Source of the DNA: a virus | Lineage: Duplodnaviria > Caudoviricetes | Length of the DNA stretch: 64,000 nucleotides | Virus record (IMG/VR): IMGVR_UViG_2824317532_000001 | Span: 32,001-96,000 of that record | Reading direction: 5' to 3' (one strand) | Shown here: piece after piece, positions 1 to 32,225 of the stretch | Numbering within the stretch: the first letter of the stretch is position 1 | Layout of the letters: the number at the start of each line of letters is the position of its first letter | The notes under the pieces: generated by a model | What the model was told of the DNA's origin: nothing | Seen by the model: only the letters and a program-made list of their open reading frames with translations | Database searches by the model: none | Made by a program: the position numbers and the translations under genes

Positions 1-1
1 G

Positions 2-700
2 GGCATCCGCAAGACCGTCGGCGAATACGTGTTCTCCGCCCTCTACCAGCAGCGGCCCAGCCCCGCCGAAGGCAACCTGTTCAAACGAATCTGGTGGCGC
101 TACTGGTCGCATGCCCCACAGACCGGCGCTAGCCCGCGCCTGGACCTCGGTGGCCGGATCTTCGACTTGCAGGACTGCTGGCGGTTCGCGACCGTCGACC
201 TCGCCAACTCGACGAAGACGTCCGGCGACTGGACGGTCATCTCCGCATGGGCGCGCAGCATCGACGGCGACCTGGTCCTACTTGACCGCACCCGGGCGAA
301 GATCGGCGAAATCGACCACTTCACCCACGCCCGGCCGCTCGTACAGCGCTGGCAGCTCGACACCCTGTACGTCGAACAATCCCAGTACGGCACCACACTG
401 GTCCGTGAAGCAACCAACGACCGAGTGCCGATCGCACCGCTGGTCGCTGACACCGACAAACTGAGCCGCGCCCTGCCCGCGTCGGCGTGGGCGTCGAACG
501 GCCGGATCTGGTTACCTGCCGGCGCCGACTGGATCAAAACGTGGGTGGACGAGTTCGCCGGGTTCCCGAACGCCGCCCACGACGACCAGGTAGACACACT
601 CGCCTACGCGGTTCGTGTCGCGGTGACAAAGTGGGCGCCACCGCCGCCTCGCCCACCGGACCAGTCATCGGGCGGAGACCCGCTGAACAGCCCGATGTGA
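2..700 (+). CDS. terL: Terminase large subunit, C-terminal nuclease part (5' truncated by window)
   Basis: ALYQQRPSP, TVDLA..GDWTV and FPNAAHDDQVD motifs; frame open from position 2; directly upstream of portal. Confidence 0.93.
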   Translation, partial: GIRKTVGEYVFSALYQQRPSPAEGNLFKRIWWRYWSHAPQTGASPRLDLGGRIFDLQDCWRFATVDLANSTKTSGDWTVISAWARSIDGDLVLLDRTRAKIGEIDHFTHARPLVQRWQLDTLYVEQSQYGTTLVREATNDRVPIAPLVADTDKLSRALPASAWASNGRIWLPAGADWIKTWVDEFAGFPNAAHDDQVDTLAYAVRVAVTKWAPPPPRPPDQSSGGDPLNSPM

Positions 701-727
701 TAGACGCTGGTGAGGTGGTGGTCTCCG

Positions 728-2821
728 GTGACCGCCCCAACCTCCGTGAAGGGCTTCGTCGATCCGTACACGCTCGGCACCGATTTCGGGTCCCTGTACG
801 TTGACCTGCTCGAGCACGTGCCCGACCTGACGTGGCCGCTGTCGGTTCCGGTGTACGCGAAGATGCGCCGCGATCCTCAGCTGACCGCCATCTTGCAGGG
901 CTGGACGTTGCAGTTGCGGCGCGCCCAGTGGCAGATCGACCCGGCCGGCTGCCGGCCCGAGGTGGTGTCGGCGGTCGCGGACGGGCTCGGGCTCGCGGTG
1001 GCGGGCGCGGACAAGCCGGGTGCGGCGCGGCTGCGTGGCGTTTCCTGGAGCGAGCATCTCCAGGCCGCGTTGCGTGCGCTGACGTTCGGGCACGCGGCGT
1101 TCGAGATGCAGGCGGACGTGTCCAGCGGCAAGGCACTGCTGTCGGGGCTGTGGGAGCGCCCGCAGTGGACGATCTCCCACATCCACGTGGACGGGAAGAC
1201 CGGCCTACTCGAGGGCATCACCCAGGACGCGGCAACCAACCTCGTTAGCCCGCAGATCAAGGCTGACCGGCTCGTCTGGTACGTCGCCGACCGGGAAGGC
1301 GCGAACTGGGCGGGCACCTCTCTACTGCGGCCCGCCTACGCTGCGTGGCTCATCAAGGAGGAGATGCGGCGCGTCCACGCCATCGCCAACCGAAGATGGG
1401 GCATGGGCGTCCCCGTCATGGAGGCGCTGCCCGGCACGAACCCGACCAGCGGGCAGATGACCGAAGCCATGCAGTTGGCTGCCGCCGCCCGATCCGGGGA
1501 ACAGGCCGGCGCGGCGACTCCGCCTGGCTTCACCCTCAAGATTCAGGGACTCTCGGGTAGTGTGCCGGACACGCTGTCGTTCATGCGCTGGCTCGATCAG
1601 CAGATGTCCCGCGCCGCCCTGATGGGCATGCTGGACCTCGGCGAGACACCGAACGGATCCCGCGCCCTTGGCGAAACGTTCGTCGACGCGTTCCTGCTTG
1701 CCCTCGAGGCGACCGCCGAAGCCGTCGCGGACACCGCCACCCGGCAGGCAGCGGCACGAATCGTCGACTGGAACTGGGGCGCCGACGAACCCGTCCCCCG
1801 CATCGTGGTGTCCGGCGTCGGTAGCCGGCGCGAAGTCACCGCTGAGGCGCTGCAAATGCTTCTCGCCTCCGGTGGGCTCGCCTCCGACCCTGGTCTCGAG
1901 GCGTGGATCCGTCGTGAATGGCGGCTGCCAGAACGTGAGGGTATGGCCCAGCCGAAGCCGACTGCGCCGGGCGTGGACCTGCCGGACAAGGACGAGAAGC
2001 CGCCCGCCGAACCCGAGCAAGAGGTTGCGGCGGCAGCCAAGCCTCGCCCGCGGTCGCGGCGCCGTACTCAGCAGCCGTCACTGTTCGACGACGACGACGG
2101 GGAATCTGACGCGGCCCGCATTCAGCAGCAGTGGGATCAGGCGAAAGCCCGGCTGCTGCGCCGCTGGCCGAAACTGGCGGCACCTTTGGTCGGCGAACTC
2201 GCCGACCAGGCGCAGGCCGCCGTAGAAGTCGGCGACCTGGGACTGCTCGGGCAGCTGCAGGCGTCCGCCGGTGTGGTCGCCGCGCTGGCGGTGCCGCTAC
2301 GAAAGTCGGGCACCGACCTGGCTGCGGAGGCTGCAGCCGGGGTGGTGGCGGAGGCCGCCGCCCAGGACACCGTCATCGACGTGCCGGCCGAGCCGGGCGC
2401 GGACCGGGTGCAGCAGCACGCGGACGCCGTCGCCCGCATCATCGCCGCCGGCTACGCCTCCGGTGCGGCCCGAACCAGCCTGCAACTCGCCGGAGCTGCG
2501 CCGCAGGAAGTCCGCAACGAGGTAGAGCGGCATCTCACCGAACTGGGAACCTCGGTGAACGGCCTGGTCGGCGACAACATCGGCAGCCTGCTCAGTGCCG
2601 CACAGTTCGCTGGCCGCCTCGCTGTCCTCGAGGAAAACCCGGCCACGGCATATCGGGCGAACGAGACGCCGGACCGGAACACCTGCGACCCCTGCAAGGC
2701 CATCAACGGGACCGAGTTTCAGACGCTGCGGGCCGCGCTCGCCGCCTACCCGCTGTCGGGCCAGCACGCCGCGTGCGAGGGGCGTTCACGCTGCCGCGGG
2801 TTCATCGTTCCGATCTTCTAG
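728..2821 (+). CDS. Portal protein (Mu gp29/DUF935-like) fused to MuF-like minor head domain
   Basis: VYAKMRRDPQL, ANWAGTSLLRPAY, GSRALGETF portal-type motifs; C-terminal NTCDPC...CEGRSRCRG; GTG 728 preferred over ORF start 710. Confidence 0.85.
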   Translation: MTAPTSVKGFVDPYTLGTDFGSLYVDLLEHVPDLTWPLSVPVYAKMRRDPQLTAILQGWTLQLRRAQWQIDPAGCRPEVVSAVADGLGLAVAGADKPGAARLRGVSWSEHLQAALRALTFGHAAFEMQADVSSGKALLSGLWERPQWTISHIHVDGKTGLLEGITQDAATNLVSPQIKADRLVWYVADREGANWAGTSLLRPAYAAWLIKEEMRRVHAIANRRWGMGVPVMEALPGTNPTSGQMTEAMQLAAAARSGEQAGAATPPGFTLKIQGLSGSVPDTLSFMRWLDQQMSRAALMGMLDLGETPNGSRALGETFVDAFLLALEATAEAVADTATRQAAARIVDWNWGADEPVPRIVVSGVGSRREVTAEALQMLLASGGLASDPGLEAWIRREWRLPEREGMAQPKPTAPGVDLPDKDEKPPAEPEQEVAAAAKPRPRSRRRTQQPSLFDDDDGESDAARIQQQWDQAKARLLRRWPKLAAPLVGELADQAQAAVEVGDLGLLGQLQASAGVVAALAVPLRKSGTDLAAEAAAGVVAEAAAQDTVIDVPAEPGADRVQQHADAVARIIAAGYASGAARTSLQLAGAAPQEVRNEVERHLTELGTSVNGLVGDNIGSLLSAAQFAGRLAVLEENPATAYRANETPDRNTCDPCKAINGTEFQTLRAALAAYPLSGQHAACEGRSRCRGFIVPIF

Positions 2822-17931: not shown

Positions 17932-20900
17932 GTGATGACATCCCCGGATTCGGTGGGCGAAGTCAGCGTAGAGGTTGTCGCCGATGCAGCGACGCTGGCG
18001 AAGGATCTGAAAGACAAAGTCGAGAAGGGGTTCAAGGACCTCGACCCGGCTAAGGGGCTCAAAGCCAAGCTCAAGGGGTCGAAGCCGATCCCGCTGCCGG
18101 TCGTGCCGGAGCCGGTGACGAAGGATTTGCCGGCCGACACTGAGGAGGAGGCGAAGAAGACTCGCACCCCGCGGGTGCCGGTCGGCTTGGATCCGCTGCT
18201 TGAGGCGTTCCAGCAAGAAGTGCAGCGGCAGATCAAGTCGCTGGCACGCACGATCAACGCCGAAATCCCGGTCGGCGCCGACACCGACGGGTTGCGCCGT
18301 GAACTCGCCGCCGAGCTGGCTGCGGTGGCGCAGCAGGCCAAAGCGAAGATTCCGGTCGAGGTCGACGACCGGGCAAAACTGGAAACCGAACTGCGGGCGT
18401 CCGTTGCTGCCCTGTCGGAGCGGGTCAAGGCTTCTATCAAGGTTGATCCGGACACGACCGGGCTCGGTGAGAAGGTCGAGGCTGCCGCCGACCGGGCGGT
18501 TGGCCGCGCCAAAGTCCGAGTCCCGGTCGATGTGGATGTTGACAAGGGCGGAGCCCTGTCCAAAATCCGCAGCCTGTTCTCGGGACTCGGTGGTGGGCTG
18601 CTCAACGGCCTAGACGCGGCGATCACCCGCACCGCGTCCAGCGCGGCTCAGATGGGCGGGGCACTCGTCGGCGCCCTCAGCTCGTCAACGGGGCCGCTCG
18701 GCACCATCATCGGCCTGCTCGGTGGGGCTGTCGCGGCGATGGCTGCGCTGGCAGCAGCGGCGGTGGCGGCAGTGCCGGCTATCACGGCGGTGGCGGGTGC
18801 GGCGGCGGCGATCCCTGGCGCTCTCGCGGGTGCGGGTGCCGCATTTGGGGCGCTGGCACTCGGGTTCAAGGGCATCTCGGAGGCGTTCAAGCCGAGCGGG
18901 GGCGGTGGCGGGGGTGGTGGCGGGGCGGGCAACCAGGGCAAGCAGATCGCTGCGGCCGCGCGTCAGGTGGAGGCTGCCCGGCGTGGGATCGCCGCCGCGA
19001 ACCGGCAGGTAGAGGCGTCCGAGCGGGCTTTGGCTGCCGCACACCGGGGGGTGGAGGCGGCGGAGCTGCGGCTGGTGGAGGCGCAGCGGCGTGCTCTGTC
19101 GGCGCAGCAGGCGATCGCCCGTGCCCGCGAGGAGGCGGCCGAGTCGATTGACGACTTGAACCGCAGTCTTCGTGGGGCCCGCCTGTCGGAGGAGGATGCT
19201 GCCCTCGGTGTCGAAGAGGCGCTGCGGGCCCTCAACGAGGCCAAACTGTCGGGCAACATTCCCGACATCAAGCGGGCGGATCTCGCCTACAGGCAGGCGC
19301 TGCAAACCCTCGACGAGGCCAAGGACACCACCAGCGACCTATCGGCGGAGACCGAGGAAGCCAACCGCAAGGGTGTTGAGGGCTCCGACCAGGTTCAAGA
19401 CGCACTCCAGGAGCAGCGGGACGCTTTGCAGGGTGTCCGGGATGCGCAGATCGGCATCATCGAGGCCAACGACAGCCTCGCCTCCGCGCAGGACGGTGTC
19501 GCCGCCGCGATGGACGGCGTCAAGTCGGCGGCGGACGGGCTGACGTCGGCGCAGGAGTCCCTGGCGCAGGCACAGCAGGGTGTCGCGGCGGGGGGCGGCG
19601 GCGTCGCCCGCGAGATCACGAGGCTGGCGCCGGCGGCGGCGAAGTTCGTGCAGGCGGTCAAGGACCTGAAACCGGCGTTCGAGGACTTGCGCCTGGACGT
19701 GCAGGAACGCCTGTTCCGTGACTTGGACAAGACGGTCACCAATCTGGGGTCGGAGTGGATTCCGCGGCTACACAAGAACCTCGGCGACTATGCGACCACG
19801 TTCAACGGCTTCTTCAAGGATCTCGGCACGTCGCTGACAGACCGAGAGTTCATGAAGGACATCTCGATCGGGTTGGAGGGCTTCCGCGTCGGCATGGACG
19901 CCGTCTTCGACTCGGTGTCGCAGAAACTGGTGCCCGCGCTCGGTGACTTGGTCGAGGCGTCAGCGCCGTTCCTCGAGGCGCTCGGTGAGGGCATCGCCAC
20001 GGTGGTCACGAAGTTCAGTGACTGGGTGCAGGCTGGCGAGGATTCCGACGCGTTGAAGGACTTCTTCGAACGTGCCACCGTCGCACTCGGTGAGATCGGC
20101 CGGATCGGTGGCTCCGTAGTCCGCATCATCGGCGGCATCATCGAGACGATCACTGGGGCGCAGGCGACGGATTCGTCACAGTCGCCGCTGGAAGCGTTCC
20201 GGCGCGGCCTGGACCGGGTCGCGGACTGGCTGAACAACCCGACCAACCAGGAACAGATCCGCAACCTGATTCGCGACATCGCCAACGCGGCGGTCGAGTT
20301 CGGTGAGGCTGCGACCGCAATCAACGACTTCCTGAAGAGGATCGGCGTCGGAGGTTCGGAGAAGGGCGGCTCGGTCGGCGCCGACATCGGCCGGGCAATA
20401 TTCGCTGGTCTGCTCGCGGGTCTAGGGGCGGCGTTCGAGGCGAATCTGAAATTTTTGCTGTCGCCGTTCACCAACTTCATCGACGCGGTGAAGACCACGT
20501 TCGGGATCAAGTCGCCTAGCACGGTGTTCGCGGAGATCGGCAAGGATCTGGTTCGCGGTCTCCTCAACGGGATCGGCGCGATGGTGGAGTCGCTACGGCA
20601 AAAGGCAGTCGGACTCAAGACGACGATCGGTAATGCCCTGTCGGGCGCCGGCTCGTGGCTGGTCCAGACCGGAAAGAACGCCGTCTCCGGGCTAGGCTCC
20701 GGGCTCTCGTCGCTGGGAACGTGGCTGCGCGAGAAGGCCACCGGCTTGAAGACGACGGTGACGGGCGCACTGTCGAACTCGATCAACTGGCTTTCTTCGA
20801 CAGGAAAGAATGTCGTGTACGGCCTGTGGAACGGGATCTCCAGCCTCAGCACCTGGCTGTGGAACAAGGTCACCAGCTTTGCCCGCAACTACGTCACCAA

Positions 20901-21255
20901 CGCCGTCAACTCGGCACTCGGCATCGAATCGCCGTCGAAGGTGATGGCGCAGGCCGGCGCCTACACCGCCCAAGGTTTCGCCCTCGGCATGGAGGGTGAG
21001 GCCGGCCGGGTCGAGGCGGCCGCAGACCGGATCGCAGCGGCAGCGTTGCCGCAGGTTCAGGATGCGGCGCTCGGCCTCGGCTGGGAGGCGGACGCCACGA
21101 TCGCGCAGAGTCTGTCGGTCGCCGACCAGCAGCGCATGCTGCTGGGCTGGAAGACCGGCGCCACGGGAGACCAACTGCTGGATGCGGTGGCCCGGCTGAT
21201 CGACATCTCCTATCAGGGGGATGTCGAGGCGGCGTTCACCCGCACCCGCCGATAA
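17932..21255 (+). CDS. Tape measure protein
   Basis: 1107 aa, Ala/Gly-rich helical; GIKSPS and GIESPSKV motifs. Confidence 0.92.
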   Translation: MMTSPDSVGEVSVEVVADAATLAKDLKDKVEKGFKDLDPAKGLKAKLKGSKPIPLPVVPEPVTKDLPADTEEEAKKTRTPRVPVGLDPLLEAFQQEVQRQIKSLARTINAEIPVGADTDGLRRELAAELAAVAQQAKAKIPVEVDDRAKLETELRASVAALSERVKASIKVDPDTTGLGEKVEAAADRAVGRAKVRVPVDVDVDKGGALSKIRSLFSGLGGGLLNGLDAAITRTASSAAQMGGALVGALSSSTGPLGTIIGLLGGAVAAMAALAAAAVAAVPAITAVAGAAAAIPGALAGAGAAFGALALGFKGISEAFKPSGGGGGGGGGAGNQGKQIAAAARQVEAARRGIAAANRQVEASERALAAAHRGVEAAELRLVEAQRRALSAQQAIARAREEAAESIDDLNRSLRGARLSEEDAALGVEEALRALNEAKLSGNIPDIKRADLAYRQALQTLDEAKDTTSDLSAETEEANRKGVEGSDQVQDALQEQRDALQGVRDAQIGIIEANDSLASAQDGVAAAMDGVKSAADGLTSAQESLAQAQQGVAAGGGGVAREITRLAPAAAKFVQAVKDLKPAFEDLRLDVQERLFRDLDKTVTNLGSEWIPRLHKNLGDYATTFNGFFKDLGTSLTDREFMKDISIGLEGFRVGMDAVFDSVSQKLVPALGDLVEASAPFLEALGEGIATVVTKFSDWVQAGEDSDALKDFFERATVALGEIGRIGGSVVRIIGGIIETITGAQATDSSQSPLEAFRRGLDRVADWLNNPTNQEQIRNLIRDIANAAVEFGEAATAINDFLKRIGVGGSEKGGSVGADIGRAIFAGLLAGLGAAFEANLKFLLSPFTNFIDAVKTTFGIKSPSTVFAEIGKDLVRGLLNGIGAMVESLRQKAVGLKTTIGNALSGAGSWLVQTGKNAVSGLGSGLSSLGTWLREKATGLKTTVTGALSNSINWLSSTGKNVVYGLWNGISSLSTWLWNKVTSFARNYVTNAVNSALGIESPSKVMAQAGAYTAQGFALGMEGEAGRVEAAADRIAAAALPQVQDAALGLGWEADATIAQSLSVADQQRMLLGWKTGATGDQLLDAVARLIDISYQGDVEAAFTRTRR

Positions 21256-23902: not shown

Positions 23903-26797
23903 GTGCCGGTTCTGCTGCCTGGCCTGCTCACCTCCCCCAGCCCAGGTACCACCGGCCTGTTTCCGGAAGAGGACCTGGAACTCACCTGCGAAGCAGCCTG
24001 GGGTGCCGACCTCGATGCAGAGCCCGACTCGTGGGAGTGGACGGACTTGTCGGATCGGGTCATCGACTCTCCGATCAGCATCACCCGCGGTGTGCTGGTC
24101 GGCGGCCGCACGTCGCGGGGTACGTCGGGCACGGTTGCGCTGCTCAACGAAGACGGCTGGCTGTCGCTGCATCATCCGGGGAGCCCGTGGTGGCCGCACG
24201 TGGACGCCGGCACGCCGGTGCGGATCTCGGTGCGGACCCGCACCGTGCCGTATCTGACTGACACGTTCACGCGCACCGTGGCGTCCGGCTGGGGCACGGC
24301 AGAGGCTGTCAGCGGTGAGGGCGGCACGAGCTGGCTCAACACCAGCGGCCTGTCCGTCGACGGGACCGCGGCGCAGATCTCGTGCGCGGTGTCGAACACC
24401 GTCTACACGTCCCGCATCTTCAAGCCCCACCGGGATGTGGACGTCACCTACGACGTCGCCTCCTCGGTAGTCACCACCGGCGGACCGTTGGCCACCGGGC
24501 CGACACTGCGGGCCAGCACCTCCAACGCCGACCACAGTTGGCCGCTGCTGGAGTTTCAGCCCGACGCCTCTCTACGGTGGGCGCTGTGGAGACGGCTCAG
24601 CGGCTCCTACACGCAGCTCGAAACCGCCACCATTCCCGGCCTCACCTACACAGTCGGCACCGTCATCCGGGTCCGATTCCTACTGATCGGCGCCCGGCTG
24701 CGGGCAAAAGCGTGGCTGGCCGCCGGGATCGAGCCGGGCGAGTGGACTCTCGACTACACGTTCACCGACGCCGCGTTGATCGCCGGAGGAAACTACTTCG
24801 GCATCGCGGCCTGGCCGATCTCGACGCTGAGTAATCCGCTGCCGGTCTCCGTGTCGATCGACAACCTCACGATCACCCAGCCCCGCTATCCGCGGATCGA
24901 GGGCTACATCGCCGACATCAAGGCCTCCTACCAGCCGGTCGACGACGAAACCACCCACTCGATCGCCGTGATCGACATCGGTGGGGTCGGAACCCGCCTT
25001 GAACTGCGGGACTCCGACGCGTGGTCGCCGATGCGGCGTTCCATCCAGTGGGGTGACGCCGATCCGGTCGCCTACTGGCATTGTGAGGACGCCGACCGTG
25101 CCACCCAGGCCGCGTCGGGGATCACCGGCCAGCCGGCGTTGCAGGTGACCGGCCCGGTGGTGTTCTCGTTCGACACTGGCGAACCCGAAGACACCCTCAT
25201 CAGCCGCTACGGATCCAAGAATTTGTGTTCTGTTGCGGCGGGCGCCCGCTTGTCGACCGCGTTCACGCCCAGCTCGGTGCAGAACGAGTGGACGGTCGGG
25301 ATCACCGCGCAGGTGATCGCCGCGCTGGTGCCGGTGTCCGAGATTCGCATGCTGGAATGGTCGACGCTCGGCACCTTCACCCGCTGGGCGCTCGTGTCCA
25401 CGGCAACGGGTCATGAGGTACGCGCCTACAACGACGTCGCCGGGACGTCGACCACAGCGTGTTCGACAGTGAACTCGGTGAATGCGCTGTGCGGCTTCGA
25501 CGTTCAGGCGGTCCAGGCCGGCGCCAACATCGACGTCACCCTGCTCCTGGACACGGTTGTCTACGCCGCCGGCAGCGTCGCCGGCACACTCGGGGCGCCG
25601 CATGCGATCGAAGTCAACCCGGACCGGGCCAATACCACCGGCTCCACCAGCGCGTTCGGCATCAGGTGGCTGGCCGGGCATGTGGTCATCCACGACACGG
25701 CTACCGCCTCCTCGCTGCCGTACTACTACGACGACGATCTCACCTTGTACCGGGCCGATCAGGGCTGGTATCGGGAGCCCACCCATTTGCGGGCGGATCG
25801 GGTCTCCCGGGAGGGCCGGGTACCGTTCCGGCTGGTCGCGGAGCCGGACGAGGTGACCCGGCTCAACAGCCAGCAGGAGGGAACCACCCCGGACCTATTG
25901 GTTGCCGCGGTGGAGGCCGAGTCGGGTGGGCTGCTGTACGAGGCAGGGTTCGGCTACGAGATGCTGCCCCGTGTCGCCCGCTACAACCGGGCCGTCGATC
26001 TGACCATCGACCTGGCTACCTACCGGCGCACTGGTGGCACGGATCCGGCCGAGGTTCTGCAACCACAGCTGCGGTTGAAGGAGCCGACGATCTGGACTGT
26101 TCAGCGGACCGGCGGTTCCCAGGCCATGTGGGCGGCGGACGCCGAGTACCGGAAGCGGCGCGGCAATCTGGCTGCCTCCAAAACCCTGGACCTGTTGGAG
26201 GACGGGGATCTGCTCGGGCACGCCCAGTGGCGCATCCACCTGGTCGAGGATGCCCGGGGCGCTCACTACCCGGGCGCGTCGATTGATTTGACCGCGAACC
26301 CCGATTTGATCGACGACTGGCTGCTGTGCGCCCCCGGTGCCCGGGTGCAGCGCATCAACCAGCCGCTTACTGCCGGGCTCGGCACGGTCGATCAGGTTGC
26401 GGAGGGTCTCTCGGAGACGCTCGGCCGCCGTACGTGGGTGGCGTCGATCGAGGGCGCGCCGGCTGAGGTGTGGGATGTGGGCCTGTACGACGACGCGTGG
26501 CTGGCCGATTCGGTGTCCACCACTCTGGTTGCTGATCAGCCGGCGACGTCGGTGGGTGCGGTGGAGTCGTGGCAGATCTCCACGGCTCTGCTCGGGGACG
26601 TGTGGGAGACGGTCGACGTCGGCTACGTCTGGGAGTCGAACGGTGAAGAAGTCACGGTGACAGCGATGGGCGCGGTCACCGGGTCCGGCCCCTACCTGCA
26701 AACCGCCACCGTGGAACGCGGGGCAAACGGCATTGTGAAGGCACACCGCGCCGGTGACCTGATTCAGTTGGCGGACCCCGCCACCTACTCACTCTGA
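23903..26797 (+). CDS. Large minor tail protein
   Basis: AWGADL..WEWTDLS..ISITRG; PVAYWHCED; TVERGANGIVKAH. Confidence 0.82.
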   Translation: MPVLLPGLLTSPSPGTTGLFPEEDLELTCEAAWGADLDAEPDSWEWTDLSDRVIDSPISITRGVLVGGRTSRGTSGTVALLNEDGWLSLHHPGSPWWPHVDAGTPVRISVRTRTVPYLTDTFTRTVASGWGTAEAVSGEGGTSWLNTSGLSVDGTAAQISCAVSNTVYTSRIFKPHRDVDVTYDVASSVVTTGGPLATGPTLRASTSNADHSWPLLEFQPDASLRWALWRRLSGSYTQLETATIPGLTYTVGTVIRVRFLLIGARLRAKAWLAAGIEPGEWTLDYTFTDAALIAGGNYFGIAAWPISTLSNPLPVSVSIDNLTITQPRYPRIEGYIADIKASYQPVDDETTHSIAVIDIGGVGTRLELRDSDAWSPMRRSIQWGDADPVAYWHCEDADRATQAASGITGQPALQVTGPVVFSFDTGEPEDTLISRYGSKNLCSVAAGARLSTAFTPSSVQNEWTVGITAQVIAALVPVSEIRMLEWSTLGTFTRWALVSTATGHEVRAYNDVAGTSTTACSTVNSVNALCGFDVQAVQAGANIDVTLLLDTVVYAAGSVAGTLGAPHAIEVNPDRANTTGSTSAFGIRWLAGHVVIHDTATASSLPYYYDDDLTLYRADQGWYREPTHLRADRVSREGRVPFRLVAEPDEVTRLNSQQEGTTPDLLVAAVEAESGGLLYEAGFGYEMLPRVARYNRAVDLTIDLATYRRTGGTDPAEVLQPQLRLKEPTIWTVQRTGGSQAMWAADAEYRKRRGNLAASKTLDLLEDGDLLGHAQWRIHLVEDARGAHYPGASIDLTANPDLIDDWLLCAPGARVQRINQPLTAGLGTVDQVAEGLSETLGRRTWVASIEGAPAEVWDVGLYDDAWLADSVSTTLVADQPATSVGAVESWQISTALLGDVWETVDVGYVWESNGEEVTVTAMGAVTGSGPYLQTATVERGANGIVKAHRAGDLIQLADPATYSL

Positions 26798-28206: not shown

Positions 28207-28242
28207 CCGCCTTCCCACCACAACTACATACGGGGAGCCGCC

Positions 28243-28554
28243 GTGCACCACCACATCGATGCCGTGTCGCTGCTGTTCCAGGCCGCCAATACTGCAATCG
28301 TCACCGGGTATCTGTCGGTGCCGTTCCTGGTGCTGCCCTATCTGCCGCTGACGCGCATGGTGCGGCTGTTCGGCGCGGGATTCTTCGTGGGCTGCGCGGG
28401 CAGCCACACGTGGATGGCGGTCATGGGCCACGACGGCTGGCCGTGGATGCTGTGGCACGTCGCCCAGGCCGTATGCACCTGGGGGTTCATCCTCGCGTTC
28501 CGGCAGATGCTGCGCCGAGCCCAGCAGCGCCGTGGCGGTGGGGGCCCGCAGTGA
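28243..28554 (+). CDS. 3-TM membrane protein with ethylene-receptor-like YxSxP/CxxxH motifs
   Basis: Three hydrophobic segments; GYLSVP, FFVGCAGSH. Confidence 0.65.
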   Translation: MHHHIDAVSLLFQAANTAIVTGYLSVPFLVLPYLPLTRMVRLFGAGFFVGCAGSHTWMAVMGHDGWPWMLWHVAQAVCTWGFILAFRQMLRRAQQRRGGGGPQ

Positions 28555-29560: not shown

Positions 29561-29601
29561 ACATCCTTCACGCCTAGTCGTCGCGCAGCTAGAGTGTGCG
29601 C

Positions 29602-29805
29602 ATGACATCTAGCGTCAAGCTAATGGGTGCGCACGAAATCCGGGTCCGGCTCGGCGGCGTTTCCCGCCAGCGCGCCTACCAGATCACCCAACGCGCAGAC
29701 TTCCCCAAACCGGTCGCAGACCTGGAGCAGGGCAAAGTCTGGCTGGCCTCGGATGTCGAAGCCTGGGTGAAGGTCAAGCGCCCGCACCAGGACGACGAAG
29801 ACTAA
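29602..29805 (+). CDS. AlpA/excisionase-like DNA-binding protein
   Basis: LMGAHEI..GVSRQRAYQIT..DFPKPVA..KVW; TAGAGT-N6-ATG leaderless start. Confidence 0.8.
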   Translation: MTSSVKLMGAHEIRVRLGGVSRQRAYQITQRADFPKPVADLEQGKVWLASDVEAWVKVKRPHQDDED

Positions 29806-30411: not shown

Positions 30412-30756
30412 ATGAAGATCAGCCGCGAGCCCGCGCTGTACCTGACCCTGTTCGCGACGCTGGTACGGCTGCTCGCCGCGTTCTGGCTCGACCTGTCCGA
30501 CGGCCAACAGGCCGTTCTCAACGCGACCGCCACCGCGGTCGCGGGTCTCATCGTCGCCGTCTGGGTTCGCCGCGACGGGCAGGTCGCCGCCCTGCTCGGT
30601 GTCGTCCAAGCCGTGCTTGCCCTGGCGGTCGGGTTCGGCGCGGACCTGTCCGCGGAGTCGCAGGCGGTCATCATGTCGTTCGTCGGCACCGCCGCCGCAA
30701 TGTTCGTCCGCACGCAGGTCGACGCGAAAACGCCAGCCGTCGTACACGCCGACTAG
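30412..30756 (+). CDS. Holin-like protein
   Basis: MKISREPAL...FVRTQV; duplicated TM hairpin (LDLSDGQQA / ADLSAESQA). Confidence 0.75.
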   Translation: MKISREPALYLTLFATLVRLLAAFWLDLSDGQQAVLNATATAVAGLIVAVWVRRDGQVAALLGVVQAVLALAVGFGADLSAESQAVIMSFVGTAAAMFVRTQVDAKTPAVVHAD

Positions 30757-30927: not shown

Positions 30928-31815
30928 CTAACGCCGCCAGACGTTGACCGTCGCCGTCTCCAGCGAATCAGCACCCTCCGGCCCCTTGACGTGACTAGCA
31001 ATCCACGTCGGGCGACGCAACGACCGCTGCGGGCCGTACGCCTGATCCCGCCAGTGCCCGCGGACGATCCACCGGTGCTTGTAGTGTCGGCCGGGCTGGT
31101 CGGGGTCGAGTGGAGGTTGCCCGGAGAGTCGGTACTGTCGGCGCAACTCCACGAGGGTCACCTCGGGATCACCGCGGCCAGCTCGGCCGTAAGCAGCCCG
31201 GATCTTGCGTTCGACCTCGACGGGAACCCGGTCGATGACCGTAGGCTGTTGCATGAGTGCCCACGCCGCAGCCAGGGTGGTCAGCACGGTCCTGTCCCGG
31301 TCCGGCAGCTCGCCCGGGTCCTGCCAATTGTCGTCAACGGCCAAACTCTGCCCGGCAATTGGTACCAGCGGCGGCACCGCAGTGGTGTCGATCCGGGCAC
31401 CGCGCTCGGCAAGCTGGTCTTCGAGCCGGCCGCGGGCCACATAGTAGGAGACCAGCAGCCCTTGCGGGTGCGGACCCCACGACACGGCATCCACGGGGAT
31501 CGGCACGTTCTCGTAGTCGAGGGTGCCAATGCCGCCGTCGAAGACCAGCAAACCATGAGTCGAGGGCCGATCTGCATCCGTCCACCGCACCTGCGGGATC
31601 GTTTCAGCGGCGCCGACGGACAACGCGGCCATCTCCGGCGCCACCCAATACAGATCGGCAACGCCGAGGCTGCGGGCAACGTGGTCGAGTTGGGCAGCCG
31701 TGTCGTCGCGCCCGGATCGGGCCAGACTCGCACGCAGCGCGCTGCCTGGGTCGGCAAGCAGGCGTTGCAGCCCGTCACGGACCTTTGGGAGGCGGGAGGC
31801 TGTCCAGTTACTCAC
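30928..31815 (-). CDS. Conserved hypothetical protein (VRGHWR family)
   Basis: HRWIVRGHWRDQAYGP...WIASHVKGP. Confidence 0.75.
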   Translation of the reverse strand: MSNWTASRLPKVRDGLQRLLADPGSALRASLARSGRDDTAAQLDHVARSLGVADLYWVAPEMAALSVGAAETIPQVRWTDADRPSTHGLLVFDGGIGTLDYENVPIPVDAVSWGPHPQGLLVSYYVARGRLEDQLAERGARIDTTAVPPLVPIAGQSLAVDDNWQDPGELPDRDRTVLTTLAAAWALMQQPTVIDRVPVEVERKIRAAYGRAGRGDPEVTLVELRRQYRLSGQPPLDPDQPGRHYKHRWIVRGHWRDQAYGPQRSLRRPTWIASHVKGPEGADSLETATVNVWRR

Positions 31816-32225
31816 GGCTGGCCGTCCGGGGCAGGGTACGCAATGCGCAGGCCTGGCACTTCAAGGGCGATCCGGGCGACGACTGCCCGGTGCCACGAGG
31901 CCGGGAACTCGACCTCAGGGTGGGCTGCGTGGTACTCGTGGTCGTTGCGGTACACCAGCACGCCCGGGTCGGGAATGCCGACGAGTTTCTCGACACATCC
32001 GCCGATGAACTCGCCGGTACGCCGCTCTATATCCTCCATGGCCAGTCGCACCCCGTCGGGGATCGGGTATTTTCCCTGCTCCCAGTGGCGCACGGTGCGG
32101 GCCGAGACTCCGAGGTGGCCGGCGAGCCAGTCGCCGGTGAGGCCGAGGTGTTCGCGGACGACCCGGAACTCCGCATCGGTCATGCGCTCGTCTTCCGGCA
32201 TGCCGGGCGGGTCGGTGTACTCCAC
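31812..32225 (-). CDS. XRE HTH regulator, DUF1870/Aca2-like
   Basis: MTDAEFRVVREHLGLT..LAGHLGVSARTVRHWEQGKYPIPDGV...WHRAVVARI. Confidence 0.75.
   Translation of the reverse strand: MEYTDPPGMPEDERMTDAEFRVVREHLGLTGDWLAGHLGVSARTVRHWEQGKYPIPDGVRLAMEDIERRTGEFIGGCVEKLVGIPDPGVLVYRNDHEYHAAHPEVEFPASWHRAVVARIALEVPGLRIAYPAPDGQP

Follow-up and report, generated by a model that had tools for sequence, protein, structure and literature searches.

The ethylene-binding domain of ETR1/ERS1, SynEtr1, and AzoEtr1 is built from three membrane helices, with a [D/N]-x2-I-x3-Y motif on helix 1 and a C-x3-H motif on helix 2. In the available excerpts of one study, Cys65 and His69 are the Cu(I) ligands of ETR1, Asp25 is coupled to Lys91 of helix 3, of 1,221 domains, 93.55% have Asp and 3.67% have Asn at the Asp25 position, and ETR1-D25N is a functional receptor with reduced ethylene affinity (PMC10266040); the excerpts of a second study give the loss of affinity with D25N as approximately 100-fold (PMC11971883). 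The number of ETR1 residues required for ethylene binding is seven (PMC11819568). Here we analyze P0001, a 103-amino-acid membrane protein encoded with a GTG start at positions 28243 to 28554 (+) of a 64,000-nucleotide stretch of tailed-phage DNA (IMG/VR record IMGVR_UViG_2824317532_000001, positions 32,001 to 96,000; the whole stretch is called the window). P0001 has the three helices and both motifs of the ethylene-binding domain but differs from ethylene receptors in having no kinase, GAF, or other output domain, in carrying Asn for Asp25, and in having a loop between helices 1 and 2 that is 5 to 6 residues shorter in the phage family than in proteins of the Pfam family ETR1_N. Moreover, no Lys is conserved on helix 3 of the phage family, where an H-x2-Q-A...W-x-F pattern is found instead and no counterpart of Lys91 could be identified, and P0001 is a phage gene that lies beside probable lysis genes. 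We propose, with a probability of roughly 0.55, that P0001 is an ETR1_N-type protein without an output, likely with a buried metal site, and that it takes part in or regulates the membrane stage of host lysis.

The other described systems to which the locus can be compared are the membrane proteins of phage lysis. Class I holins, of which lambda S105 is an example, have three helices in an N-out/C-in orientation, a basic cytoplasmic tail, and a gene adjoining the endolysin gene. No homology was detected between P0001 and these holins, and the P0001 family also heads sensor kinases and diguanylate cyclases. Actinobacterial phage lysis cassettes commonly carry several jointly acting holin-like membrane genes, and in LysF1a/LysF1b of the F1-cluster mycobacteriophages and in Gordonia phage cassettes several small membrane genes stand by the lysin, as they do here; the actinobacterial cassettes include a one-helix N-out/C-in protein needed for efficient lysis (PMC13056207 and PMC9671378, each from the portion available). 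We found no sequence relation between P0001 and the holin-like proteins of those cassettes, which are without an ETR1_N domain and for which the available portions of the two papers report no conserved Cys/His site.

An earlier analysis of the letters alone, here called the sequence-only reading, had described P0001 as a stand-alone three-helix membrane protein, and that description was borne out. The open reading frame (ORF) is real and contains NTAIVTGYLSVP, LFGAGFFVGCAGSH, and WHVAQAV exactly as quoted, and an AlphaFold2 model based on 18 sequences (mean predicted local distance difference test [pLDDT] score, 83.4) places helices at residues 7 to 29, 38 to 61, and 66 to 98. Loop 1 is basic (R38 and R41), loop 2 is acidic, and the C-terminal tail, RRAQQRRGGGG, is basic. 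Because both loop 1 and the C terminus are basic, P0001 is predicted to be oriented with its N terminus out and its C terminus in. The protein stops 5 residues past helix 3, and no signaling output (kinase, GAF, or GGDEF) is fused to it.

Conservation of P0001 was assessed at two depths. A word-indexed search returned 18 proteins of 102 to 113 amino acids, the window copy among them, and alignment of P0001 with the 17 non-self homologs (55 to 82% identity) gave 30 invariant columns, including N16, Y23, P27, C51, H55, W68, H72, and Q75. N16 and Y23 lie on helix 1, C51 and H55 on helix 2, and H72 and Q75 on helix 3. Since the 17 homologs all keep these six residues and P27, P0001 is more than a chance ORF. 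A family profile built from the 18 close proteins was then scored against 1.84 billion representative proteins at an E value of ≤1e-3 and found 110 proteins, 103 of which were 172 amino acids or shorter. Among P0001 and the 110 relatives (111 sequences), Asn16 was present in 90, Tyr23 in 107, Cys51 in 101, His55 in 104, His72 in 99, and Gln75 in 102, while Asp was found at position 16 just once. Two close members of the family, P0033 (364 amino acids) and P0034 (301 amino acids), are fused forms that carry a C-terminal extension of 200 to 260 amino acids with no Pfam match.

The conserved residues also tended to be kept or lost together. For this comparison a 109-sequence set was used, from which P0074 (2,497 amino acids, matched only through a late fragment) and P0129 (a 50-amino-acid fragment) were dropped. 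The complete N-Y-C-H-H-Q set was present in 83 of the 109. Cys51 and His55 occurred together in 101, both were gone in 5, His alone remained in 3, and Cys alone remained in none, such that the pair on which the sequence-only reading had rested its copper-binding proposal is indeed conserved. Furthermore, of the 19 sequences that lack Asn16, 7 have Asp at position 72, and of the 90 that keep it, none do. As Asp72 appears only where Asn16 is missing, positions 16 and 72 perhaps touch, and the counts, which come from related and therefore non-independent sequences, hint at such a contact.

Comparison with Pfam connected the family to ETR1_N (PF25487), the curated cut-off of which is 27 bits. When 103 family members were scanned (P0001 and 102 short relatives, with seven long proteins and the 50-amino-acid fragment omitted), 47 matched PF25487 at an E value of ≤1 (best, 5.4e-7), whereas the next most common family was found in 3. 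Eight of ten members picked by length matched ETR1_N at 11.8 to 23.8 bits, co-linearly over profile positions 2 to 96 of 97. ETR1_N was likewise the top match of a viral homolog that is 53% identical to P0001 (contig L001; 17.3 bits), and more distant proteins from contigs L019 and L022 scored 18.0 and 21.5 bits. The ESM Atlas clusters nearest to P0001 contain proteins of 107 to 138 amino acids, carry ETR1_N on 37%, 53%, and 64% of their members, and have Uroviricota as their commonest labeled taxon; some related clusters bear the automatic name [quoted passage not shown]

Profile-profile alignment against accepted ETR1_N members gave a closer comparison. PF25487 was searched in 401 genomes of the phylum to which the genome of prophage locus L003 belongs, of which 19 had a match at an E value of ≤0.01 and 5 exceeded the cut-off, among them L024 at 102.7 bits and L025 at 98.8 bits. 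Six proteins above the cut-off, from L024, L025, L007, L026, and L027 and gp065 of phage Molly, served as the reference for hhalign. The 109-sequence family matched this reference with 96.7% probability (E = 4.3e-10) over helices 1 and 2, and the 18 close homologs matched it with 81.4% probability (E = 1.2e-5) over 82 columns that span all three helices. Against the N-terminal domains of 72 Actinoplanes kinases, the probabilities were 94.1% for the family, over helices 1 and 2, and 57.3% for the close set.

The alignments with these reference proteins, which scored 27 to 103 bits, confirmed the register of P0001 with the ethylene-binding domain. Asn16 aligned with the Asp of L024 and with the Asn of L025, L007, and L027, in agreement with the sequence-only reading, which had put an Asn at the position of ETR1 Asp25. 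Tyr23, Cys51, and His55 were in register with the Tyr, Cys, and His of the reference proteins in both hhalign and hmmsearch alignments. On helix 3, His72 and Gln75 fell on Ser and Thr of L024 in the only alignment to reach that helix, which is of low confidence. An equivalence of His72 with ETR1 Lys91 was considered and dropped, as this sole helix 3 alignment sets His72 two turns further on. In comparison with ethylene receptors, His72 and Gln75 are features of the phage family only. We conclude that P0001 is, as judged by profile comparison, a distant relative of ETR1_N proteins, representing a divergent branch of the superfamily that lies outside the threshold of Pfam itself.

The same branch is found at the head of sensor proteins. 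The set of Asn, CxxTH, and HxxQ heads four such proteins only, namely, P0117 (PAS-GAF-GGDEF-HD; 1,082 amino acids), P0126 (a hybrid kinase), P0127 (a PAS kinase), and P0099 (a HisKA fragment), and the branch therefore serves both as a sensor input and alone. A second group, the hybrid sensor kinases of Actinoplanes, resembles P0001 in host genus, in the Asn variant, and in the Tyr and CxxxH residues but differs in length (630 to 1040 amino acids), in its PAS, kinase, and receiver domains, and in a helix 3 without H-x2-Q. One such kinase, encoded at 1 to 1827 (-) of L007, has an ETR1_N input domain with Asn for Asp25 that scores 33.4 bits, above the cut-off, and its 73 homologs (P0133 to P0205; about 650 amino acids) have precomputed Pfam lists without PF25487. 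Separately, L026 to L029 are short actinobacterial frames of 185 to 266 amino acids with an ETR1_N-like domain at 24.7 to 32 bits and no kinase domain; their C-terminal helix resembles the HisKA_3 phospho-acceptor box with Asn or Asp replacing His (e.g., ...ALEINDNIVQGL).

P0001 is the first of three coupled membrane genes. A GGGGAG ribosome-binding site, read from the sequence, lies at 28232 to 28237 (+), 5 nucleotides before the GTG of P0001. The stop codon of P0001 overlaps the GTG start of P0002 (28551 to 29072, +; 173 amino acids) in a GTGA, and the stop codon of P0002 overlaps the ATG start of P0004 (29069 to 29560, +; 163 amino acids) in an ATGA. P0001, P0002, and P0004 are thus translationally coupled via overlapping stop and start codons, as the sequence-only reading had stated. 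P0002 has an N-terminal cytoplasmic helix followed by four predicted membrane helices and a basic C terminus; it weakly matches phrog_2272 (of unknown function), and its nearest Atlas clusters are unnamed phage proteins. P0004 has one N-terminal membrane helix, a coiled coil, and a C-terminal P-D/E-P-P-P motif, and it weakly matches phrog_1397.

The trio was conserved as a unit. It was intact in all five close loci, which are the viral contig L001 and the Actinoplanes/Paractinoplanes prophages L003 to L006, and a scan of IMG/VR with three other subfamilies yielded five further distinct contigs (L016, L018, L019, L022, and L023). Homologs of P0002, after the P0001 homolog, and of P0004 were found in L001, L003 to L006, and L023; in L023, which keeps the order unchanged, the P0002 homolog is 37% identical (E = 4e-37) and the P0004 homolog 25% identical (E = 2e-12), the latter with weak matches to phrog_2658 (hol-like) and phrog_1350 (holin). 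In L019 and L022 a different four-helix protein is followed by a one-helix coiled-coil protein, and in L016 the four-helix gene precedes the ETR1_N-like gene and a one-helix coiled-coil gene comes after it; the one-helix proteins of these three contigs are of a build like that of P0004. The order of three-helix, four-helix, and one-helix coiled-coil proteins was therefore present in 8 of 10 non-self loci (L001, L003 to L006, L019, L022, and L023), for the most part behind tail or lysin genes. The C-terminal proline motif was common to otherwise diverged P0004 counterparts (window, L001, L003, L016, and L023), in variants such as DFPDPPPVTFD, EWPDPPPISLD, TYPEPPRLPENLE, and KLPPPPILTG. The four-helix partner in L019 (4293 to 4838, +) matches phrog_4026, "minor tail protein" (E = 1.3e-16), an annotation that is probably wrong since the protein has four membrane helices.

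The trio stands at the end of the structural genes of a prophage. The window comes from a siphovirus-type prophage of the soil bacterium Actinoplanes, and a stretch identical to it is present in a 205-kb contig of Actinoplanes campanulatus JCM 3059 (L002). The tape measure gene lies at 17932 to 21255, and a 964-amino-acid tail-region protein is encoded at 23903 to 26797 (+; phrog_5313, E = 1.6e-85), homologs of which are found upstream of the trio in L003 to L006; the position of this protein places the cassette after the tail genes. Between them lies P0003 (27244 to 28206, +; 320 amino acids), a probable endolysin of an unnamed family, which is separated from P0001 by a gap of 36 nucleotides. 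In the other loci, the gene upstream of the trio varies: L003 has an endolysin gene there, L016 and L023 have a tail gene, and L004 and L005 have a gene for a phrog_32486 protein of unknown function.

P0003 itself matched none of the Pfam, PHROG, and NCBIfam families. It consists of an N-terminal domain, which holds invariant His and Asp residues, and a helical C-terminal part; H44, H52, D87, H151, H154, and H156 do not vary in 40 sequences, and its family gave 215 matches, all "hypothetical," from Micromonosporaceae and their phages, including Micromonospora phage pMLP1. Four homologs among the 120 matches listed (498 to 550 amino acids) are fused to PF01183 Glyco_hydro_25, a GH25 muramidase domain. 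The model of the N-terminal domain had a pLDDT score of >90, and a Foldseek search of the P0003 model against the PDB returned nothing; the sole structural match covering the domain, which fell below the noise bar of the tool, was 9flh_AA (Z = 6.5; root mean square deviation, 3.3; 98 of 107 residues aligned). That entry comes from pneumococcal VldE, a peptidoglycan endopeptidase, and shows its C-terminal domain with zinc bound. Moreover, in L003 the place of P0003 is occupied by a PG_binding_1 protein that matches six endolysin PHROGs. These observations suggest that P0003 is the probable lysin of the prophage and make it a candidate for a new endolysin catalytic domain. The sequence-only reading had set P0001 directly after the endolysin in a lysis cassette; the position and the late membrane-gene module hold, and the adjoining gene is a lysin only in the sense of a probable one.

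An independent case was found in a different phage. A search with the L025 domain matched 8 Maribacter phage records, and in Molly_1 (NC_062751.1) gp065, annotated as hypothetical, scores 60.9 bits to ETR1_N over residues 36 to 125; its first helix has the Asn variant and its second the CxxxH motif. The gp065 gene overlaps the preceding gp064, which encodes a one-helix coiled-coil protein, tail genes lie upstream, and the annotated endolysin gene gp066 starts 4 nucleotides after gp065. Like P0001, gp065 is thus a phage-encoded ETR1_N-type protein with the Asn and CxxxH residues, a coiled-coil neighbor, and a position by a lysin after tail genes. It differs in its length of 289 amino acids, in a 160-amino-acid C-terminal extension, and in being a clear Pfam member, and it lies upstream of the lysin rather than downstream, in a phage of a flavobacterial host, with no four-helix partner seen. 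We conclude that Molly_1, from a separate phage lineage and host phylum, has the same association of ETR1_N with an endolysin.

The proposed site and role of P0001 follow from the model and the neighborhood. P0001 would be produced together with the probable lysin and with P0002 and P0004. Asn16, Cys51, His55, His72, and Gln75 are 6 to 10 residues from the outer helix ends, counted along the model, which would put them at a similar depth within the outer leaflet, where they could meet, with Cys51 and His55 one turn apart. Together they most likely make up a buried site for a metal, for which Cu(I) would be the leading candidate by analogy with ETR1; a three-coordinate Cu(I) site of one Cys and two His ligands, backed by Asn and Gln, is plausible. 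ETR1 lacks the third ligand, His72, which might fill the place of ethylene, and we therefore prefer a metal site that is fixed or responds to redox state to a gas sensor. P0001 most likely works with P0002 and P0004 as a holin component or regulator, either holin-like or antiholin-like, and is less likely to be a hormone receptor. That P0001 would be a lysis component is suggested by the codon overlaps with two membrane genes, by the lysin neighbor, and by the cooperating holin-like proteins of actinobacterial cassettes.

Several results weigh against this proposal. P0001 itself had no Pfam match, ETR1_N included, at an E value of ≤1, the prophage copies in L003 to L006 were likewise without an ETR1_N match, and a six-frame search of the L003 to L006 genomes with PF25487 (E ≤ 10) reported large sensor genes only. 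All eight ETR1_N matches among the ten picked members fall under the 27-bit cut-off, large profiles aligned helices 1 and 2 only, and a Foldseek search of the P0001 model against PDB and BFVD gave nothing at an E value of ≤0.001. The ethylene-receptor likeness claimed by the sequence-only reading therefore stands as distant homology seen through family profiles, with a profile match by hhalign but neither a direct Pfam match nor a structural one. On the side of lysis, the upstream gene is only a probable endolysin whose structural match (Z = 6.5) falls within the noise stated for the tool, L018 is without either partner gene, and the L019 module lies behind the major head gene with no lysin adjoining; L018, like L019, is without a lysin neighbor. 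Finally, a 114-amino-acid membrane protein encoded at 30412 to 30756 (+), 850 bp downstream of the trio, matches the PHROG 9752 "holin" (E = 2e-27 over its full length), such that P0001 need not form a pore.

The alternative that survives best, though we consider it unlikely, is that P0001 is itself a holin or pinholin, a three-helix N-out/C-in protein forming a pore or ion leak, in which the polar residues would serve in packing or pore lining and no metal would be bound. Its small size, its three helices, its basic C terminus, and its place after a probable lysin all fit a holin. A homolog of the PHROG-9752 holin, 70% identical, lies directly after the trio in L023, but the holin was not found in the other nine loci searched, where its function might have to come from the trio. 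P0001 matched no holin family of Pfam or the PHROGs, PF23778 (Phage_holin_2) was found in only 2 of the 103 relatives (best E, 0.0062), and holin rows in BFVD appeared at E values of about 1. Conservation of Cys, His, His, and Gln is close to complete, and Cys and His disappear jointly, which is the pattern of a ligand site and one not known from ordinary holins. Moreover, the same motif set heads the sensor proteins P0117, P0126, P0127, and P0099. The available part of one report has the rice ethylene receptors OsERS1/2 conducting cations independently of Cys65 (PMC13261662), which makes an ion-leak role for a domain of this kind conceivable.

A still less likely alternative is that the trio is an accessory module expressed in lysogeny and separate from lysis, with a role such as superinfection exclusion, the handling of copper, or envelope sensing, and that it stands, like many modules of its kind, where the late region ends. 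Such a module would fit the L019 locus, where it sits among head genes, as well as the AlpA-like and helix-turn-helix regulators behind the trio in the window and the use of related domains as sensor inputs of host kinases. The trio is, however, on the strand of the tail and lysin genes, with the gap of just 36 nucleotides, and a scan of the cassette for promoters and terminators found 0 sites, by a method without an actinobacterial promoter model. In addition, in the window and in L003, L016, and L023 the module has a lysin or tail gene as its neighbor, and in Molly_1 the neighbor is an endolysin gene.

A bolder extension of the proposed lysis role, which we regard as doubtful, is that P0001 is a copper-bearing ethylene-receptor domain captured by a phage, free of its kinase, and turned into a switch that times lysis and is gated by a ligand or by redox state. 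Through a Cu(I) site of Cys51, His55, and His72, P0001 would sense copper, oxygen or redox conditions, or a small unsaturated gas at the membrane, and it would then free or block its four-helix and one-helix partners. If this were true, proteins of 100 residues would be the minimal natural ethylene-binding domain, and the reported ion-channel activity of the domain would be tied to a holin-like function.

Improbable, in our judgment, is a working sensor of ethylene or another small Cu(I) ligand that signals to P0002 and P0004 and so gates lysis. The Cys, His, Tyr, and Pro residues are common to P0001 and the ethylene-binding helices, the ETR1_N kinases of Actinoplanes hosts bear the same Asn, and in the available excerpts that Asn is natural in 3.67% of 1,221 domains and leaves ETR1-D25N functional (PMC10266040). 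Set against this, the excerpts of the second study attach the approximately 100-fold loss of affinity to D25N (PMC11971883), P0001 has no Lys91 counterpart, a different helix 3, and no output domain, and the conserved His72 could occupy the coordination position that ethylene needs. Least probable is convergence or chance, a generic three-helix bundle with CxxxH whose profile scores are inflated by hydrophobic helices; P0001 does lack a direct Pfam match and a structural match, but ETR1_N is the commonest family among its relatives by 47 of 103 against 3, the matches run co-linearly along the full model with the same N/D, Y, C, and H register in hhalign and hmmsearch, and the Atlas neighbors agree with ETR1_N.

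Other searches and neighboring features complete the description of the locus. An NCBIfam scan of P0001 returned HgcA only (E = 0.11, taken as noise), a PHROG scan at an E value of ≤0.1 returned no family, and a PHROG scan of seven further relatives left six without a match and gave one weak match of unknown function. A tblastn search with six members of different subfamilies against 50,697 phage records found no match, with the low-complexity filter on, which may hide membrane proteins, and a nucleotide search of GenBank phages with the 2.9-kb region likewise found none. Downstream, an AlpA-like gene (29596 to 29805) and two small reverse-strand ORFs part the trio from the PHROG-9752 holin gene. 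Farther on, a 137-amino-acid protein encoded at 31812 to 32225 (-) matches HTH_31 (E = 1.1e-7) and an Aca2/YdiL-like family (E = 1.6e-4) and is possibly an anti-CRISPR-associated or regulatory prophage gene.

A literature search found no paper describing such phage proteins, although the supplementary alignments of PMC10266040 (1,221 sequences) might include similar short ones. No entry of the PDB copy searched matched the ethylene-binding domain, as Foldseek returned nothing and the sequence profile search gave E values of ≥0.6 (best, 0.61, taken as noise); a stand-alone relative of 100 residues with an intact Cys/His site would be a handy object for structure determination and copper chemistry. 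The range of the ETR1_N superfamily is widened by a branch marked Asn...CxxTH...HxxQ, which consists mostly of orphan phage and prophage proteins and occasionally serves as the input of kinases and diguanylate cyclases. P0001 probably helps to control the bursting of its host, and if its role in lysis is true, a cofactor-bearing protein of the sensor type would be added to the lysis machinery, and it would become conceivable that the timing of lysis reads the chemistry of the membrane.

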